This document shows, piece by piece, positions 1,624-13,381 of a stretch of DNA of 14,248 nucleotides. The translations under genes were made by a program, and so were the position numbers. The notes under the pieces were generated by a model. The model searched no databases and was not told the origin of the DNA. It worked only from the letters and a program-made list of their open reading frames with translations. The stretch is from a virus. Its lineage: Duplodnaviria > Heunggongvirae > Uroviricota > Caudoviricetes. The DNA is taken from IMG/VR virus record IMGVR_UViG_2585427739_000001; one strand, given 5' to 3'. Position 1 is the stretch's first letter. Each line of letters begins with the position of its first letter.

Positions 1624-2082
1624 TTATTTCAGGCATTGCGTCCTGATGTATTCCTGCAGGTAGTTAACCTGCGCGGTTATCTTGTCGATTCCACTTCGGA
1701 GACGGTAATAATTGAGTTCAGCATCTGCTGTAAGTCCTGGGCTTTCTCCATCGCCCATGCCGCTGGCTCCGGTCGTTGACTTTGCACAGGTGGCGGCGAC
1801 TTGCAGGCGCTTACGCCCAGCAGAAACATCAGCACGGAGACTTTCGATAGTCGCGTTAGCATCAGCAAGCTCCTTTGTGTATCTTGCATCGAGCGCAGCA
1901 ACATCACGCTGACGCATCTGCATGTCAGTAATTGCCGCGTTCGCCAGCTTCAGTTCTCTGGCATTTTTGTCGCGCTGGGCTTTGTAGGTAATGGCGTTAT
2001 CACGGTAATGATTAACAGCCCATGACAGGCCGACGATGATGCAGATAACCAGAGCGGAGATAATCGCGGTTACTCTGTTCAT
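1624..2082 (-). CDS. Rz: Rz i-spanin (inner-membrane spanin subunit)
   Basis: Translation [66 protein letters not shown]... is closely similar to lambda Rz. Start overlaps the R stop; the ORF track offers a start 4 codons upstream. Confidence 0.9.
1677..1862 (-). CDS. Rz1: Rz1 o-spanin lipoprotein, embedded in the +1 frame of Rz
   Basis: Embedded ORF with a lipoprotein-type signal ([20 protein letters not shown], lipobox VSAC) followed by a proline-rich segment ([13 protein letters not shown]), the classic Rz1 architecture. Start chosen at the Met preceding the signal peptide. Confidence 0.7.
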
Positions 2083-2576
2083 TGCTGACCCCACAAACAG
2101 ATTTCACGCTCAATCTCACGACGAGTCATGAGACCTTTCCATTGCTTACCGCCAGCATATGTCCAGCGACGTAGCTGATCACATGCGCCTTTGATATCGC
2201 CCTGGTTTATTTTGCGAAGAAGCGTCGATGTTCTGAAATTGCCAGCACCCACGTTGTAAACGAATGAGTAAAGAGCGCCGCGCATTGTTTCCGGTATATC
2301 GACTTTGATGTACGGGTTAATTTGTCTGGCGACCGTGGCAAGGTCTTTATTCAGGAGGGCTTTGCATTCTGCTTTGGTATACGTTTTACCGAGCATGATG
2401 TCTTTTCCTGTATGCCCGTGACATACAGTCCATACACCAACAATATCTTTGTATGGTATGTAGCTGGCACCTTCCAGACCATCGTTACCACTTGGGCCAG
2501 TGATTAACACAGATGCTATAGCAATAGCCCCGCCACCAATAGCAGCAGCAACAGCTTTTCGTAATGATGGAGGCAT
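2079..2576 (-). CDS. R: SAR endolysin (phage 21 R-type lysozyme with N-terminal signal-arrest-release domain)
   Basis: 165 aa, [36 protein letters not shown]... then a lysozyme core; near-identical to phage 21 R / DLP12 RrrD as I recall them. Confidence 0.9.
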
Positions 2577-2791
2577 TATCCACCTCTCGCAGCCTTGCGC
2601 TTATCTTCTTTAATCTTGAAATAAAGGTTTGTCAGGTACGTCAGCAGGCCAAATACCAGGCTACCCAGCACACCTATTGCTGCCCACTGTGAGGGCGTGA
2701 CTTTATCGAGCAGCTGTAAAAACCAGTAACCGGCACTACCTGCTGAGGTGCCATAGGCGACACCCGTTGTTAACTTATCCATGGATTTCAT
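2576..2791 (-). CDS. S: Pinholin S21 (dual-start holin/antiholin: 71 aa from M1, 68 aa from M4)
   Basis: [71 protein letters not shown] matches phage 21 S / DLP12 EssD; stop overlaps the R start. Confidence 0.9.
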
Positions 2792-2913
2792 AACCCCACC
2801 TCGCAGACAAAGCGGGTGTAAATTGAGGGAATACTACGAAACGTAACAGACTCGGAGTCAGTGAATAACTCAGGTATTGGGTTATCAGCTAATATCGAGA
2901 CTCAAAAAATGGA

Positions 2914-2936
2914 AAAACCCGCTCGACGGCGGGTTT
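2914..2936 (-). terminator. Terminator-like hairpin upstream of S on the late-gene strand
   Basis: Plus strand aaaaacccgc-tcgacg-gcgggttt; on the minus strand the stem is followed by UUUUUCCAUUUUUU. Function as a late-transcript attenuator is inferred only. Confidence 0.35.
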
Positions 2937-3363
2937 AAGCTGTGTGACGAAGTAACCACTCTTAACAGCATAACCAATTTTTTACGTACGTAAACCACTA
3001 AATGATATTTGCGAGAATGCTACCGAGTATTGAAAACACCACTACAAATACATAAGCAAATCTCAACAAATAACCAACAAATAATTTCCAGTGTTATTTT
3101 TAGCCAATTTAAATTGAACCTTCAAATTATAGAGCACTTATAAATAACAGCCGTTAATATAAATTGGCTAATAGATTTATTTTTATTCAGCCAAGAGCTA
3201 TGAATAGGATTCGATAGAAAAAAGTTCAGATAAAAATAGAGATCTACTTCACAAATCAAACGAGAAACCAAAACTTACATCTTGAAATAATCACATTGAT
3301 TAGATGAATATTTATCGCGCAGTGACATCATTTTTTAATAATAGTTCAAAAAAAGGGCTCACG

Positions 3364-4461
3364 ATGAAAAAATTAACAGTGGCAATTTCTGCTGTAGCTG
3401 CATCAGTACTGATGGCGATGTCTGCTCAGGCAGCTGAAATTTATAATAAAGACAGTAACAAGCTGGATCTGTACGGGAAAGTTAATGCTAAGCACTACTT
3501 CTCCTCTAATGATGCAGATGATGGTGATACTACTTATGCCCGTCTTGGCTTCAAAGGTGAAACCCAAATCAACGATCAACTGACTGGTTTCGGTCAGTGG
3601 GAATATGAATTCAAAGGCAACCGCGCTGAATCTCAAGGTTCCTCCAAAGATAAAACCCGTCTTGCCTTCGCTGGCCTGAAATTCGGTGACTACGGCTCCA
3701 TCGATTACGGCCGTAACTACGGTGTAGCATACGACATCGGTGCGTGGACTGACGTTCTGCCAGAATTCGGTGGTGACACTTGGACTCAAACCGACGTGTT
3801 CATGACTCAACGTGCAACTGGTGTTGCAACCTATCGTAACAACGACTTCTTTGGTCTGGTTGATGGTCTGAACTTTGCTGCTCAGTACCAAGGCAAAAAC
3901 GATCGTAGCGATTTCGATAACTACACTGAAGGTAACGGTGATGGCTTCGGTTTCTCTGCTACCTATGAATACGAAGGATTCGGTATCGGTGCAACTTATG
4001 CGAAATCTGATCGTACCGACACTCAAGTTAATGCAGGGAAAGTTCTTCCTGAAGTATTTGCTTCCGGTAAAAATGCAGAAGTTTGGGCCGCAGGTCTGAA
4101 ATATGACGCTAACAACATTTACCTGGCCACTACCTATTCTGAAACCCAGAATATGACTGTATTTGCTGATCACTTCGTTGCTAATAAAGCCCAAAACTTC
4201 GAAGCTGTTGCACAATATCAGTTCGATTTCGGTCTGCGTCCGTCCGTTGCTTACCTGCAATCTAAAGGTAAGGATCTTGGAGTATGGGGCGATCAGGACT
4301 TAGTCAAATATGTTGATGTAGGTGCAACCTATTACTTCAACAAAAATATGTCTACTTTCGTTGATTACAAAATCAACCTGCTTGACAAAAATGACTTCAC
4401 TAAAGCACTCGGTGTAAGCACTGATGACATCGTTGCTGTAGGTCTGGTTTACCAGTTCTAA
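3364..4461 (+). CDS. nmpC: Outer-membrane general porin, NmpC/Lc/OmpD family (prophage moron, apparently intact)
   Basis: 365 aa with signal peptide [23 protein letters not shown]|AEIYNKD, porin-typical beta-strand repeats and C-terminal ...VGLVYQF. Encoded between Q and S on the opposite strand, as in DLP12 and phage PA-2. The ORF-track start at 3304 is an upstream extension. Confidence 0.88.
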
Positions 4462-4471
4462 TCTGATTACG

Positions 4472-4511
4472 AAAAAGATATGTTGCGGGAGGCATTGCCT
4501 CCCCAACATAT
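4472..4511 (-). terminator. Long hairpin plus U-run on the minus strand immediately past the nmpC stop; candidate late-operon early terminator (tR'-like)
   Basis: Imperfect palindrome atatgttgcgggaggcattgcctccccaacatat (4477-4511) preceded on the plus strand by aaaaa, which reads as stem plus CUUUUU on the minus strand. Confidence 0.4.
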
Positions 4512-4592
4512 AAGTGGCTCCCTCAAGCCACTTCCTTTAGAAGCACAACCTTGCTTCTAACTATATAAACCTTCTGTTATATATTACCCTTT

Positions 4593-4623
4593 ATTTTTGG
4601 GGGCGTCTCAACGCCCCATTTTT
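4593..4623 (+). terminator. Hairpin with flanking T-runs between convergent nmpC and Q; candidate nmpC terminator
   Basis: tttttgggggcgt-ctca-acgcccc-attttt: GC-rich stem followed by a T-run on the plus strand. Confidence 0.45.
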
Positions 4624-4650
4624 AATAATTTTTAGTAAACAATTGGCATA

Positions 4651-5034
4651 TTAATTAGAGTTATTAACAACGATATCCATCTCTAACCGGATATCTAATG
4701 CCATTAACATCCCTTCAATTATGCCCTCAGCCTTCTGTAACCTTTTCCCGATATAACCATCAGAGCAGCAATGCTTACCTGCCAGTGACATGAATGTCAT
4801 ACCGACTACATAATAATCTACTAATAAATCGTGCAAATCGCTGTTGTTCTTTTTCAGACGGGCCATGCACCCGCAAATAATCATCGCGTCATCGTCACAA
4901 CATTGCGGGCGAGATTTTACTTTTGAAGTAATTAATCCCTTAAAACCGGCGGCAATGGACGACCAGGTCACATCTTCATGATTATTAGCCGCCCACGCTC
5001 CCCAACGCTCAAGAACCATCTGAATATCACGCAT
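4651..5034 (-). CDS. Q: Late-gene antiterminator Q (phage 21/DLP12 QuuD type)
   Basis: 127 aa from [26 protein letters not shown]... with Cys-rich zinc-binding region ([16 protein letters not shown]); matches Q21/QuuD as recalled. The ORF track adds 5 upstream codons. Confidence 0.88.
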
Positions 5035-5119
5035 CAACTTACTCCACAAAAATCAGACCAGAACGCCAATTACAAGCAAAAATCAACAAAACAGTATTAG
5101 TTGATTGTTATCTCTGACT

Positions 5120-8369: not shown

Positions 8370-9265
8370 AGATCCACCCCGTAAATCCAGTCAGTGTTTG
8401 TCAGGTCGAGTTTTGGTTTTCCGGCTGTCACGCCAGCCTGTTGCTTGTTACGGTTGATTTCGAGCTGGGTCCACTTGTCGCGGAGTTTGGCCGGACTCAG
8501 CACGTTACCGGACCAGAAGTTGTCCTGGCAGGCCCAGCGGAAAAGCACACACATATCGCGGTGGTTACGTCCGTCACGTTCACGCATCAGGCGGATATCG
8601 TTAGCCCACCCAGCAAAATTCGGTTTTCTGGCTGATGGCGCGATGGTCTTCACCATGTCAAACATCCACTCTGCGGCGGTCAGGTCTTCTGCTGTTCCCC
8701 ACTTGCTGCCGCTCTGAATTGCAGCATCCGGTTTCACCACAGAAAGGTCGTTTTCTGGCTGGTCAGAGGATTCGCCAGAATTCTCGGACGAATAATCTTT
8801 TCTTTTTTCTTTTGTAATAGTGTCTTTTGTGTCCCCCTGTTTTGAGGGATAGCAATCCCCCAATTTGAGGGATGTTTTATCCCTCGTTTTAGGGGATTTT
8901 CCCTCGTTTTGAGGGATACACCATTCTGAGATGTTTTTATTTGGTCCAAACATGCCGCCTTGCTGCTTGATAATATTCATTCTGACGAGTTCTAACTTGG
9001 CTTCATTGCACCGTTTGACAGGTAACTTTGTAATCTCGCTAAGTTGAGAATCGGTGATTCTGTCCATTGGTTTATTCCACCCATAGGTTTTACGCAGAAT
9101 GGCAAGCAGCACTTTAAACTGTCGCTTGGTCAGATCTGCGCCCGAATAAGCCTCAAGCAGCATATTTGATAGTCTGGCGTAACCATCATCGAGATCTGCC
9201 ACATTACGCTCCTGTCCGGCAAAGTTACCTCTGCCGAAGTTGAGTATTTTTGCTGTATTTGTCAT
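8366..9265 (-). CDS. O: Replication initiator O
   Basis: 299 aa MTNTAKILNFGRGNFAGQERNVADLDDGYARLSNMLLEAYSGADLTKRQFK... matches lambda O; contains the ori iterons. Confidence 0.93.
   Translation of the reverse strand: MTNTAKILNFGRGNFAGQERNVADLDDGYARLSNMLLEAYSGADLTKRQFKVLLAILRKTYGWNKPMDRITDSQLSEITKLPVKRCNEAKLELVRMNIIKQQGGMFGPNKNISEWCIPQNEGKSPKTRDKTSLKLGDCYPSKQGDTKDTITKEKRKDYSSENSGESSDQPENDLSVVKPDAAIQSGSKWGTAEDLTAAEWMFDMVKTIAPSARKPNFAGWANDIRLMRERDGRNHRDMCVLFRWACQDNFWSGNVLSPAKLRDKWTQLEINRNKQQAGVTAGKPKLDLTNTDWIYGVDL
8786..8918. repeat. ori: Origin of replication (ori-lambda type): four ~19-bp iterons plus adjacent AT-rich region, inside the O gene
   Basis: Four direct repeats of the tccctc-gtttt-gagggat type at about 8833-8850, 8855-8873, 8879-8897 and 8900-8918, with an AT-rich stretch at about 8790-8830. 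Confidence 0.9.
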
Positions 9266-10007: not shown

Positions 10008-10724
<717 letters not shown>

Positions 10725-10763: not shown

Positions 10764-11321
10764 TTGGCAAAAATAGATGATTATCAGCCAAGCCAAGTAG
10801 AAGTTGATAAAGTACTTTATTGTAAAAAAATAGTTAACTTTTCTGGCGTTAAATGGAAACAGAAACCAAGTCGCTCTGATATGTGGCTACAAGCTCATAT
10901 CATCCCCTTGGATGAGGATTGTATACCTATACAAGGGCTAAAGTTTGAACTGAAATGGAAACCAGATCAGGATTCAGAACCTGATGACCCGATTTCTTAC
11001 CCTAAAATAAATATTATTGCTTTCTATCATAACAAGAGGGTTTTCGCGGTAGATACCTATCACTTTGACAAACACACGAATAGTTACAAGGTCGATCATC
11101 CGAAGTACCAAGATATCATTTACGGTGCTCATTACCATGTATACTATGAAGAAGCTGGATACTATAGTGATAGAATAGCGTTTCCAATCGAAGATGACAT
11201 AAACCCAGATGACCTGGTAGGGTATTGGAATTACTTCTGTAAACATCTGAACATAACTTACTCTGGGAGAATACCTTTACCGCTTGAAGATGAGTCGGGG
11301 CAAATGGGGTTTGGAATATGA
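10764..11321 (+). CDS. Uncharacterised protein A (185 aa) in the rexA position; first gene of a two-gene cassette
   Basis: ORF immediately downstream of cI (39-bp gap, no terminator seen). Only available start is TTG at 10764 preceded by AGGGCGG; the next in-frame ATG is at codon 40. Acidic, Tyr/His-rich, no obvious transmembrane segment, visibly AT-rich. Confidence 0.6.
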   Translation: MAKIDDYQPSQVEVDKVLYCKKIVNFSGVKWKQKPSRSDMWLQAHIIPLDEDCIPIQGLKFELKWKPDQDSEPDDPISYPKINIIAFYHNKRVFAVDTYHFDKHTNSYKVDHPKYQDIIYGAHYHVYYEEAGYYSDRIAFPIEDDINPDDLVGYWNYFCKHLNITYSGRIPLPLEDESGQMGFGI

Positions 11322-12070
11322 TGTGCTCAACAGTGATCTCACAACTAGGTTTCGAATGCCATCCAATAGGCAAGACCTTGAGAATTATCAGTCCATTCAC
11401 TTACTGTGATGATGGAGAGCATGTCGGTGCCTTTATCCGTGAAGTCAATGGTAGGTATTTAGTTAGTGACAGATGCGATGCCTTAATGAATATGGAGGCA
11501 AGAGGGATCTCGCTTACCAAAAAACGACTTGATGAGATACGACAATTACTGCTTAAAGAAGGCGCAGAACTCAATGCTCGAGGAGAAATCATTGCTTGGG
11601 CAACAGAAAAGGATGTCGGTGCGATTACATCGAACATAATTAGAGCTGGTATACTCGCATCAACTTTGTCGTTAGACTGGTATCAGCCAGTTCAAGCTGA
11701 AAAGTTTGAAAGTATGGTTATTGATTATCTATATCACACAGAGCTTAGAGAGGCACTTTCTCTTCGTGAAAACGTATATGGCTTGAGTGGACATCAAATT
11801 ACCGTCCCTGTAACAATAAAAACCGACATACCTAAATACGTTTTTACATCAAGCGTGAAACACGGAGGAAGCTGGAATAGTGCTTACTCATTGCTTGGGA
11901 AACTAATTGATCTTAAAGCTTCAAGTGAGGAGTATAACAACAGATTTGTTGTTATAGACAGCGAAGCAATTGGTGATCAAATGCAACAACTCTCCTTACT
12001 CTTCCATGAATCAAGCCAAGTTCTACCATTCTCCAAAAGAGAGACTTGGATTAAGAGACTTGCAGCATAA
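11318..12070 (+). CDS. Uncharacterised protein B (250 aa) in the rexB position; second gene of the cassette
   Basis: ATG at 11318 overlaps the stop of protein A (ATGA), implying translational coupling. No recognisable family and no long hydrophobic helices; followed by an intrinsic terminator. Confidence 0.65.
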   Translation: MMCSTVISQLGFECHPIGKTLRIISPFTYCDDGEHVGAFIREVNGRYLVSDRCDALMNMEARGISLTKKRLDEIRQLLLKEGAELNARGEIIAWATEKDVGAITSNIIRAGILASTLSLDWYQPVQAEKFESMVIDYLYHTELREALSLRENVYGLSGHQITVPVTIKTDIPKYVFTSSVKHGGSWNSAYSLLGKLIDLKASSEEYNNRFVVIDSEAIGDQMQQLSLLFHESSQVLPFSKRETWIKRLAA

Positions 12071-12392: not shown

Positions 12393-12502
12393 AGCATTCA
12401 AAGCAGAAAGCTTTGAGTAGCGCGAAATGCAGCTGCAAGACAGCAACCGTGGGGATAAGCATCACGGCGCGTTACTCAAAGCTAACTGACAGGAGAATCC
12501 AG

Positions 12503-12826
12503 ATGGATGCACAAACACGCCGCCGCGAACGTCGCGCAGAGAAACAGGCTCAATGGAAAGCAGCAAATCCCCTGTTGGTTGGGGTAAGCGCAAAACCAGT
12601 TAACCGCCCTATTCTCTCGCTGAATCGCAAACCGAAATCACGAGTAGAAAGCGCACTGAATCCGATAGACCTTACAGTGCTGGCTGAATACCACGAACAG
12701 ATTGAAAGCAACCTGCAACGTATTGAGCGCAAGAATCAGCGCACATGGTACAGCAAGCCTGGCGAACGCGGCATAACATGCAGTGGACGCCAGAAAATTA
12801 AGGGAAAATCGATTCCTCTTACCTAG
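12503..12826 (+). CDS. N: Antiterminator N
   Basis: 107 aa MDAQTRRRERRAEKQAQWKAANPLLVGVSAKPVNRPILSLNRKPKSRVESALNP... with arginine-rich motif; AGGAGA RBS upstream. The ORF-track start at 12413 is a leader extension. Confidence 0.93.
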   Translation: MDAQTRRRERRAEKQAQWKAANPLLVGVSAKPVNRPILSLNRKPKSRVESALNPIDLTVLAEYHEQIESNLQRIERKNQRTWYSKPGERGITCSGRQKIKGKSIPLT

Positions 12827-13381
12827 TTACTTAGATATTGGCCTTGGCTTTATCTCAATATTATATGGATCATAGCTGGCAACTAATTCAGTCCAGTAAA
12901 TATCCTCAATAGGGAATAATATATGCTTCCCGTTCCATCGGGAAAAAGTTTTGTTCAACACACCAAGCTCAATCAACTCACTAATGTATGGGAATTGTTT
13001 TGATGTAACCACATACTTCCTGCCTTCATTAAGGGCTGCGCACAAAACCATAGATTGCTCTTCTGTAAGGTTTTGAATTACCGATCGCACTTTATCGTTT
13101 TGCATCTTAATGCGTTTTCTTAGCTTAAATCGCTTATATCTGGCGCTGGCAATAGCTGATAATCGATGCACATTAATTGCTAGCGAAAATGCAAGAGCAA
13201 AGACGAAAACATGCCACACATGAGGAATACCGATTCTCTCATTAACATATTCAGGCCAGTTATCTGGGCTTAAAAGCAGAAGTCCAACCCAGATAACGAT
13301 CATATACATGGTTCTCTCCAGAGGTTCATTACTGAACACTCGTCCGAGAATAACGAGTGGATCCATTTCTATACTCATCAA
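12827..13381 (-). CDS. sieB: Superinfection exclusion protein SieB (convergent with N)
   Basis: 184 aa MMSIEMDPLVILGRVFSNEPLERTMYMIVIWVGLLLLSPDNWPEYVNERIGIPHVWHVFVFALAFSLAINV... with hydrophobic N-terminal segments; position and size match lambda sieB. Confidence 0.8.
   Translation of the reverse strand: MMSIEMDPLVILGRVFSNEPLERTMYMIVIWVGLLLLSPDNWPEYVNERIGIPHVWHVFVFALAFSLAINVHRLSAIASARYKRFKLRKRIKMQNDKVRSVIQNLTEEQSMVLCAALNEGRKYVVTSKQFPYISELIELGVLNKTFSRWNGKHILFPIEDIYWTELVASYDPYNIEIKPRPISK

Follow-up and report, generated by a model that had tools for sequence, protein, structure and literature searches.

Gene layout at the locus

The window, by which we mean the whole 14,248-nucleotide stretch of viral DNA that was analyzed (Caudoviricetes; IMG/VR record IMGVR_UViG_2585427739_000001), contains a porin gene situated between the antiterminator gene Q and the lysis genes. 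Q (5034-4651) and the holin gene S (2791-2576) are both on the minus strand, and the porin gene lies between them on the plus strand (3364-4461). Q encodes a 127-residue antiterminator of the quuD type (Pfam Phage_antitermQ, E 4e-53; quuD in RefSeq), which the list of open reading frames extends to a TTG at 5049. Its product shares 78% amino acid identity with the Q protein of VT2-Sakai and 933W and has a distant match to the Q21 structures 6JNX and 6P18. The holin is of the essD type (Pfam Phage_holin_2_1, E 2e-35; essD in RefSeq), and its gene is the first of a lysis cassette that continues on the minus strand with R and Rz. The spacer upstream of the porin gene (2792-3363) has a G+C content of 34%, compared with 46% for the whole window. 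A sequence-only reading of this DNA had described an opposite-strand porin gene between Q and S with an AT-rich upstream region, and the reading frame, strand, neighboring genes and base composition all agree with that description.

The location on the opposite strand between Q and S-R-Rz is that of the NmpC/Lc cassettes. It is very probable that positions 2996-4701 represent the nmpC/lc porin cassette of the lambdoid phages, a self-contained, opposite-strand 'moron' inserted between Q and Q's own late promoter. Several properties associated with morons are found here, including a terminator in the window, an own promoter that is taken from K-12 genetics, and presence or absence of the unit between otherwise homologous phage genes. 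Most likely, the cassette is not part of the phage late transcript and does not sit inside a late leader. The porin gene itself is not new: it is nmpC/lc, a phage-borne gene familiar since the 1970s-80s and present here as an intact copy, and the associated RNA IpeX has been described since 2006. Of 5426 complete E. coli genomes, at least 2397 (nearly half) contain the Q-porin-S block, which also occurs in viable phages such as PhiR26_1. The availability of an intact copy, unlike the K-12 reference copy, is of modest use.

The porin protein

The listed open reading frame for the porin spans 3304-4461 on the plus strand (385 residues), and the actual start is the ATG at 3364, giving a protein of 365 residues. 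This codon is preceded by AAGGG and is the start given in both RefSeq and PA-2. Another in-frame ATG, at 3304, was considered as an alternative and set aside, as it is without a ribosome-binding site, is unused in RefSeq and PA-2, and would add an N-terminal extension that differs in E. albertii.

The protein belongs to the general bacterial porins (OmpC/OmpF/PhoE family), from which a pore function is predicted. The Pfam Porin_1 profile (PF00267) matches end to end (1-337 of 337, E 5.6e-157), and the NCBIfam OmpC subfamily model gives 529.8 bits against a cut-off of 484 bits. The protein was compared with the solved 16-strand porins by sequence only; residues 24-365 align from the first residue to the last with the mature crystal chains of OmpC, OmpK36, OmpF and PhoE (E 1e-137 to 1e-109). 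This collinearity over complete mature chains indicates that the gene contains no frameshift, which had been named as a possible oversight of the initial inspection. A 23-residue signal peptide (3364-3432) ends at a cleavage site ...SAQA|AEIY, and the C-terminus reads ...VYQF, so that the signal peptide and terminal Phe read from the sequence earlier both hold. The loop-3 constriction motif PEFGGD and a C-terminal aromatic residue, which acts as an assembly signal, are hallmarks of the general porin family; the motif is present here as LPEFGGDTW.

The gene is under strong purifying selection, with dN/dS of 0.02-0.07 against 29 variants, among them a 96%-identical E. albertii copy in a prophage remnant. 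Given the intact NmpC/Lc-type frame, its own control region and its terminator, the proposal that this is a lysogenic-conversion gene appears plausible.

Promoter and 3' untranslated region of the porin gene

The porin promoter region, PnmpC, is assigned to 3165-3363 on the plus strand from K-12 deletion genetics and conservation. In K-12, deletion of the fragment from -199 to -1 relative to the nmpC ATG abolishes nmpC-driven transcription, and PnmpC is active without prophage induction (PMC11677980). A 75%-identical E. albertii copy is conserved only over 3213-3362, and conservation is high in the 113 bp nearest the promoter. Candidate hexamers for this promoter are weak (for example TTGAAA-18-GAATAT ending at 3311). 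A built-in consensus promoter scan of the spacer returned nothing, and a relaxed hexamer scan of this AT-rich DNA returned many 8/12 matches, the homology-supported late promoter among them, and was thus non-discriminating. A CRP-like site (ATTTGTGAAGTAGATCTCTAT on the minus strand; 3235-3255) corresponds through the collinear alignment to misc_binding 1363-1383 of J02580, where it is a prediction of the depositors.

Downstream of the stop codon, the 3' untranslated region (4462-4627, plus strand) folds into four hairpins followed by a terminator hairpin (-63.4 kcal/mol, z = -8.5). This structure is kept in 10 variants, with variation mostly in loops and one compensatory pair, and the region is identical to K-12 at 188 of 189 positions. 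IpeX is described as a 167-nt RNA of DLP12 (review, PMC12197685) that is also found in PA-2 (PMC10690425) and represses OmpC and OmpF post-transcriptionally (PMC12197685, PMC3333887). On the basis of these reviews, we infer that the 3' untranslated region bears IpeX. A search of the whole window against Rfam in E-value mode found no IpeX or other relevant family, the sole match being a chance snoRNA inside the O gene; since IpeX is without an Rfam family, its boundaries in the window are inferred. The intrinsic terminator of the porin transcript (4600-4627, plus strand) consists of GGGGCGT-CTCA-ACGCCCC followed by ATTTTTAATA and was detected by a terminator scan and by folding (-14 kcal/mol, z = -3.5). 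A second, 15-bp G+C-rich hairpin lies just past the porin stop codon (4478-4511) and folds on either strand (-22.7 kcal/mol on the minus strand, -23.3 kcal/mol on the plus strand, z about -5.8). On the minus strand it is followed by CUUUUU and could therefore stop transcripts leaving Q.

These properties bear on whether the lysogen carries the intact porin gene as silent cargo with no present function. Its AT-rich upstream DNA is typical of silenced foreign DNA, K-12 tolerates the disruption of nmpC by IS5, and Prilipov in 1998 is said to have found an intact nmpC silent, or quiescent, in E. coli B. Silent carriage is nevertheless unlikely in view of the low dN/dS across the 29 variants, including the E. 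albertii remnant copy, the high conservation of the 3' untranslated region and of those 113 bp, and the demonstrable activity of PnmpC in K-12. PA-2 lysogens, moreover, make Lc.

Predicted position of the late promoter

The minus-strand segment 2995-2913 shares 77% identity with the pR'-qut-terminator block as annotated in VT2-Sakai and 24B. The predicted pR' (2994-2967) consists of a -35 element TTTACG at 2994-2989, a 16-nt spacer and a -10 element TATGCT at 2972-2967, with a predicted +1 A at 2960; this placement comes from homology, and the hexamers themselves match at only 8 of 12 positions, no better than several chance-level matches. In the Stx phage Sp5 the pR' transcription start has been mapped by dRNA-seq, 258 nt before the 3' end of tR' (PMC7547250), and this start corresponds to window position 2960. 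Across 51 spacer variants, the variability of pR' is 0.001, and no part of the spacer varies less than the promoter block, which makes it unlikely that the 2995-2913 block is a dead relic. The similar divergence of Q (78% identity in protein) and the promoter block (77% in DNA) shows that the two have changed in step. In VT2-Sakai, positions 601-682 (promoter, qut and hairpin) correspond to window 2913-2995 and positions 771-1105 (Q) to window 4702-5036, so that 88 bp separate the two blocks in VT2-Sakai and 1706 bp in the window.

The initial transcribed region (AGTGGTTACTTCGTCACACAGCTT; 2960-2937, minus strand) aligns with the 'putative Q-utilization' feature of VT2-Sakai, has a variability of 0.002 and is a probable Q-loading and pause region. 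The PA-2 record labels 2939-2959 as a CRP site. From +25 to +57 of the predicted transcript, a tR'-like hairpin (AAACCCGC-CGTCGA-GCGGGTTT then TTCCATTTTTT; 2936-2904, minus strand) was identified by terminator scan and folding; its homologue in VT2-Sakai is the first of the terminators annotated downstream of pR'. An equivalent of the second Stx-phage terminator, the one with the mapped tR' 3' end 258 nt downstream, was not found in the window, and the hairpin at 2936-2915 may consequently not be the working tR'.

A different lysis promoter has been published for DLP12. By the numbering of the DLP12 literature, this sigmaE-type 'essDp' would read as a -35 element TGAACT at 3348-3343 and a -10 element TCACT at 3325-3321, with a start at about 3315 on the minus strand. 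The numbering follows from primer Pdlp12Fw, which is defined as -121 and maps to 3436-3417, and the position depends on the coordinates of a later paper. The essDp promoter reportedly goes back to work by Rueggeberg in 2015. It differs from the pR' placed at 2960. Literature searches on essDp and QDLP12 returned nothing relevant, those on the pR' sequence string and the phage 82 promoter yielded no sequence for comparison, and genomic SELEX data for minor sigma factors were too coarse for promoter placement.

Judged by homology and literature coordinates, both starts (2960 and about 3315) would fall between the porin coding sequence and S and be directed away from the former, which places the porin gene between Q and its late promoter. 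The sequence-only reading had instead put the porin inside the late operon leader, where Q-antiterminated transcription must read through it antisense. With the pR'-qut-hairpin block at 2995-2913 and essDp at about 3315, this mechanistic claim is probably wrong, and the sole antisense transcription still to be expected over the porin would be early rightward read-through from Q.

That earlier view amounts to a late promoter directly after Q, as in lambda, with the porin inside a late leader of roughly 1.8 kb that is read antisense toward S. It has the canonical lambda layout in its favor, as well as two chance-level minus-strand hexamer pairs near Q (-10 elements ending at 4625 and 4560), and the porin terminator hairpin is without a U-run on the minus strand and would not stop such transcripts. 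We nonetheless regard it as very unlikely, because the homologue of a mapped late promoter is the most conserved part of the spacer, and because 4462-4650 travels only with the porin, as its own structured 3' untranslated region. The longer segment 4462-4720 near Q occurs only in 36 porin-carrying phage records, while the promoter block occurs in 356. Further, the lysis regulatory fragment of DLP12, as defined in published work (3436 to about 2668), excludes the Q-proximal region, and phages PhiR40_1 and 1720a-02 show the cassette to be an insertion between Q and the promoter block. For this widespread type of late region, the assumption carried over from lambda that a late promoter comes right after Q fails. 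In prophages of the quuD type, models of late transcription, of antisense effects or of cargo expression should put pR' between the porin gene and S.

Inverted repeat in the spacer

An imperfect inverted repeat had been noted upstream of the porin gene and suggested as a regulatory site. The repeat exists, with arms at 3101-3115 and 3156-3170 (1-2 nt from the positions first given) that are complementary at 14 of 15 positions across a 40-nt gap. The proposed regulatory role finds no support: no segment of the spacer varies more than the left arm, and the E. albertii copy conserves only the part downstream of it (3213-3362).

As a working element, the repeat could be a protein-binding palindrome or, lying between the divergent promoters of the porin and the lysis genes, a plus-strand RNA hairpin or insulator. 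When the spacer was shuffled 1000 times by dinucleotides, only 6 of the shuffled versions contained a repeat of this quality, the plus-strand RNA folds at -16.5 kcal/mol (z = -4.3), and a T-rich run follows the right arm. While the repeat is not conserved as a DNA palindrome, all 16 arm combinations retain 12-14 of 15 pairs as plus-strand RNA when G-U is allowed, and pair 3105:3166 switches from C-G to T-A in several of them; the sequences are closely related, which makes this apparent covariation weak evidence. Such a role is quite unlikely, since the inverted-repeat allele is rare (3 of 83 related sequences) and strict complementarity is 11-13 of 15 in the remaining 80. Besides the variability of the left arm and the position outside the conserved part of the E. 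albertii homologue, the repeat lies mostly outside the -199 to -1 fragment whose deletion removes PnmpC in K-12, and an upstream plus-strand promoter is not established.

Proposed expression of the cassette

In the lysogen, a promoter within about 200 bp of the ATG would produce a single porin mRNA. This mRNA would supply a replacement general porin, and its 3' untranslated region would also lower host OmpC and OmpF, so that surface receptors could be changed with permeability kept. Porin expression in a lysogen of this prophage, together with a fall in OmpC, is predicted from the literature. Upon induction, Q would act at pR' (+1 about 2960) and RNA polymerase would pass the hairpin at 2936-2915 into S-R-Rz; with a late start at this position, the late transcript would never cross the porin coding sequence. 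Antisense RNA to the porin would arise only from early rightward transcripts running out of Q, and the hairpin at 4511-4478 may limit these.

The gap from Q to pR' appears open to more than one kind of opposite-strand cargo gene. A more far-reaching proposal is that the gap is a recurrent docking slot for opposite-strand lysogenic-conversion genes, that the porin promoter (about 3318) and the sigmaE lysis promoter (about 3315) start a few bases apart and opposed here, so that porin expression and leaky lysis expression exclude each other, and that the 3101-3170 hairpin, with a hypervariable CCGG-derived tetranucleotide, is an RNA or DNA insulator. We offer this combined model as speculation and hold it to be rather improbable.

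Comparison with known systems

The closest described relative is NmpC of K-12, encoded by the defective prophage DLP12 (qsr'). The proteins are identical at 365 of 365 residues once IS5 is excised from the K-12 gene, the Q-to-S segments are 99.5% identical in nucleotide sequence, and the same neighbors (quuD, essD, rrrD) and 3' untranslated region are present. In K-12, however, IS5 interrupts nmpC behind codon 346 (window position 4404). The copy in the window is uninterrupted, and the IS5 present there is found beyond Rz instead (<1-1153). This prophage also keeps lambda-type immunity, replication and nin regions, none of which occurs in the section of the DLP12 record that was examined.

Phage PA-2 uses OmpC as its receptor and carries the porin Lc (protein 2). 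Its record (GenBank J02580; Blasband, Marcotte and Schnaitman 1986) can be aligned over its whole length with window 1889-4688, a collinear 2.8 kb at 96.5% identity. Lc is identical at 361 of 365 residues, differing by R99H, Q149G, A151T and V154F, and shares the 23-residue signal peptide. Its gene is oriented in the same way relative to R/Rz, and the 3' untranslated region is 99.6% identical. These matches to NmpC and Lc confirm the earlier designation of a complete NmpC/Lc-type porin. Outside Escherichia, the closest porins are Salmonella OmpD and chromosomal orthologues in Citrobacter and Enterobacter, with 74-78% identity over the full length, and nmpC has been treated as the E. coli counterpart of ompD (PMC3333887). 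No nucleotide similarity of the porin upstream region or 3' untranslated region to chromosomal ompD-type loci in other genera was detected, which indicates that the phage porin gene carries its own control regions and IpeX.

Other phages show the same interval with different contents. In phage 1720a-02, Q directly adjoins the promoter block and the slot is empty, as in VT2-Sakai. PhiR40_1 has a similar Q (82% nucleotide identity), the same pR' block (85.5%) and an opposite-strand gene in the same slot and orientation, but this gene (PHROG 3152) encodes a 148-residue lipoprotein-like protein with no similarity to porins. The Stx phages (933W, VT2-Sakai), with their related Q and homologous pR' block, likewise carry cargo in the Q-to-S interval, yet stx is found past pR'/tR' on the late strand, where its expression depends on Q antitermination. 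By homology and literature coordinates, the porin, in contrast, appears not to lie downstream of pR' within the late transcript; it is located ahead of pR' on the opposite strand and would be expressed from a promoter of its own.

Intact porin gene of the nmpC/lc type

The prophage in the window is lambdoid and its forward direction is the minus strand, with a lambda-type repressor gene at 10011-10724 (+), the cro, cII, O, P and nin genes on the minus strand, and Q (5034-4651), the holin gene S (2791-2576), the endolysin gene R (2576-2079) and Rz (2094-1624) also on the minus strand. Between Q and S, and opposite in strand to both, lies a porin gene on the plus strand, which appears in the list of open reading frames at 3304-4461. 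Its true start is the ATG at 3364, giving a protein of 365 aa; this codon is preceded by AAGGG and is the start used in both RefSeq and the lc record of phage PA-2. The protein matches Pfam Porin_1 over its whole length (E 5.6e-157), and residues 24-365 align from first to last with the mature chains of OmpC, OmpK36, OmpF and PhoE deposited in the PDB, which shows that the frame is intact and places a 23-aa signal peptide (…SAQA before AEIY) where one is expected. The PEFGGD motif of loop 3 and a terminal Phe were both found, and the spacer upstream has 34% G+C versus 46% in the whole window. The sequence-only reading, which described a full-length antisense porin with a signal peptide, a terminal Phe and an AT-rich upstream region, is confirmed on these points.

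The gene is the already known nmpC/lc. Across the entire Q-to-S segment, identity to prophage DLP12 of E. coli K-12 is 99.5%, and when the IS5 element that interrupts the K-12 pseudogene after codon 346 (window 4404) is removed, NmpC and the window porin are identical at 365/365 residues. The PA-2 lc record J02580 (GenBank, 1986) aligns over its full length with window 1889-4688 (96.5% identity), and Lc differs from the window porin at four residues. The quuD-porin-essD-rrrD block is present, at a coverage of at least 80%, in at least 2397 of 5426 complete E. coli genomes, and gene order and orientation are identical in phages that form plaques, among them mEp332, PhiR26_1, Kati and the 434B hybrid. 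Values of dN/dS against 29 distinct full-length variants are 0.02-0.07, so the porin protein is under strong purifying selection. The nearest porins outside Escherichia are encoded by chromosomal OmpD-type genes (74-78% identity), with no detectable similarity between the sequences flanking those loci and the window porin.

An intact porin gene, 96% identical and adjoining a bor-like lipoprotein gene, was also observed in an Escherichia albertii record (L089, 231-2503). Ordinary chromosomal genes lie immediately downstream of this pair, and neither Q, S nor the block homologous to the Stx-phage late promoter was detectable in the locus, which looks like a prophage remnant that retained only its two surface-protein genes.

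Location of the late promoter

In lambda, the late promoter pR' directly follows Q, and on this layout the sequence-only reading had placed the porin antisense inside the late leader. When the S-porin spacer was the query of a sensitive search, window 2913-2995 matched several hundred Stx-phage records at ~77-78% identity, coinciding with the VT2-Sakai and 24B annotations 'putative late promoter', 'putative Q-utilization' and 'possible rho-independent terminator'. The homology is collinear, with VT2-Sakai 601-682 corresponding to window 2913-2995 and VT2-Sakai 771-1105 (Q) to window 4702-5036, the two blocks being separated by 88 bp in VT2-Sakai versus 1706 bp in the window. The Q proteins are likewise 78% identical, so Q and the promoter block diverged together.

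The pR' start of Stx phage Sp5, mapped by dRNA-seq, precedes the 3' end of the late terminator tR' by 258 nt (PMC7547250); transferred to the VT2-Sakai record, it falls 7 nt past the annotated -10 and corresponds to window 2960. By homology, the predicted minus-strand promoter consists of a -35 TTTACG (2994-2989), a -10 TATGCT (2972-2967) and an A at 2960 as +1, followed by a hairpin with a U-run (2936-2904), and the S start codon stands at +170 of the predicted transcript. Across 51 distinct variants no other part of the spacer varies as little as this block (0.001-0.002 differences per site per sequence, compared with 0.05-0.12 at positions 2995-3170). The hexamers are weak (8/12), and matches just as weak occur near Q; moreover, mapping in Stx phages placed tR' at a second terminator, of which the window has no equivalent.

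The predicted -35 lies within a perfect 14-nt palindrome at 2981-2994, TTTACGTACGTAAA, and the Stx-phage counterpart, TTTACGATCGTAAA, is likewise a perfect palindrome with a different centre. A mirror-image promoter-like match, TTTACG-17-GATATT, runs in the opposite direction.

A second start comes from DLP12, where PMC7918800 (citing Rueggeberg 2015) gives the lysis-cassette regulatory fragment as -121 to +650. Its forward primer maps to 3436-3417, which would set the +1 of that paper at ~3315 on the minus strand, and TGAACT, 17 nt, TCACT just upstream reads as a putative sigmaE-type promoter. Whichever of the two minus-strand starts is taken, 2960 or 3315, it lies between the porin coding sequence and S and faces away from the porin; the antisense placement in the late leader is therefore probably wrong. 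Judged from homology and published coordinates, the coding sequence very probably lies outside the Q-dependent transcript.

Porin 3' end and proposed function in the lysogen

The cassette inserted between Q and pR' is autonomous: its gene is intact, and it has a terminator and a structured 3'UTR. Four hairpins and an intrinsic terminator make up the 166-nt stretch that runs from the stop codon through the U-run (4462-4627), with a fold of -63.4 kcal/mol (z = -8.5); changes among 20 variants fall mainly in loops, and a consensus fold of ten of these variants contains one compensatory pair. According to reviews, IpeX is a 167-nt RNA of DLP12, found in PA-2 too, which arises within the porin transcript and represses ompC and ompF, lowering OmpC and OmpF (PMC12197685, PMC5069750, PMC3333887, PMC10690425). 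From these descriptions we infer that 4462-4627 is IpeX. An Rfam scan of the window gave no family matching IpeX; its sole match, a sub-threshold snoRNA at 8843-8925 (19.6 bits versus a 46-bit cut-off), covers a run of GGGAT/TCCCTC-type repeats within replication gene O and is due to chance, because these repeats look like origin iterons.

In uninduced K-12, the region from -199 to -1 of the nmpC ATG (window 3165-3363) drives transcription (PMC11677980), and predicted CRP sites in J02580 correspond to window 2939-2959 and 3235-3255. The proposal of a lysogenic-conversion gene is consistent with this promoter activity and with the effect of IpeX. A single mRNA in the lysogen could provide a replacement porin while its 3'UTR turned down the host porins, and such a swap would alter phage receptors and keep permeability. 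During lytic growth, the sole antisense RNA over the porin would be early rightward transcripts leaving Q, and these could be halted, where polymerase is unmodified, at a 15-bp hairpin (4511-4478) followed on the minus strand by CUUUUU.

Inverted repeat upstream of the porin

The imperfect inverted repeat that had been put forward as a possible regulatory site exists, with 14/15 positions complementary, but its arms lie at 3101-3115 and 3156-3170, 1-2 nt from where they had been placed. An equally good repeat arose in only 6/1000 dinucleotide shuffles of the spacer. A regulatory role is unsupported and appears highly unlikely: no segment of the spacer varies more than the left arm, and the repeat falls outside the stretch conserved in E. 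albertii (only 3213-3362) and almost entirely outside the K-12 deletion of the nmpC promoter (PMC11677980). The window allele, CCAA at positions 3104-3107 within the left arm, is carried by 3 of 83 related sequences, and the common alleles CCGA and CCGG leave 12-13 of 15 positions complementary. As plus-strand RNA with G-U allowed, 12-14 of 15 pairs are kept in every arm combination, one pair is altered on both sides among the 83 sequences, and the fold has z = -4.3; this pairing carries little weight because the sequences are closely related and no upstream plus-strand promoter is known.

The tetranucleotide 3104-3107 itself takes 11 states in 83 spacers that are otherwise 86-99.7% identical (CCGA 30, CCGG 22, TTGA 12, CTTA 5, CTGG 4, CCAA 3, CCAG 2, TTGG 2, and CTGA, TTAA and CAAA 1 each). 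Nearly all are obtainable from CCGG through C-to-T or G-to-A transitions, and the site looks like a local mutation hotspot.

Neighbouring genes and related phages

An IS5 copy runs past the left edge of the window, by which it is truncated, and has its terminus at 1138-1153. It breaks a minus-strand gene just past Rz (from 1454 downwards, PHROG 4284) at the site where DLP12, 434B and PhiR26_1 carry bor; here the porin was left whole and the neighbouring gene hit instead. Immediately after the repressor gene, at the rexA/rexB position, two plus-strand genes (10764-12070) have PADLOC matches to A (E 5e-4) and B (E 5.8e-10) of the candidate defence system PDC-M24; further matches are to PHROGs 2017 and 1960, DUF6978 (weak) and DUF1828. 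On either side of the leftward early region are a gene for SieB superinfection exclusion (Pfam E 1e-29) and an N gene of lambda type, at 12827-13381 (-) and 12413-12826 (+); besides the porin, the prophage thus carries at least one more gene that protects the lysogen.

The contents of the interval between Q and pR' differ between phages, and both this variation and the linkage of the Q-adjoining sequence to the porin speak further against a late promoter immediately after Q. The Q-adjoining sequence 4462-4720 was found only in 36 porin-carrying phage records. In phage PhiR40_1, Q is similar (82% nt) and the pR' block is the same (85.5%), but a different opposite-strand gene lies in between. 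The product of this gene (1648-2094 of record L169, +) is 148 aa long, begins with a lipoprotein-like N-terminus (…LLSATIISGC) and matches PHROG 3152, of unknown function, with no match in Pfam or PADLOC. In phage 1720a-02, by contrast, Q immediately adjoins the pR' block.
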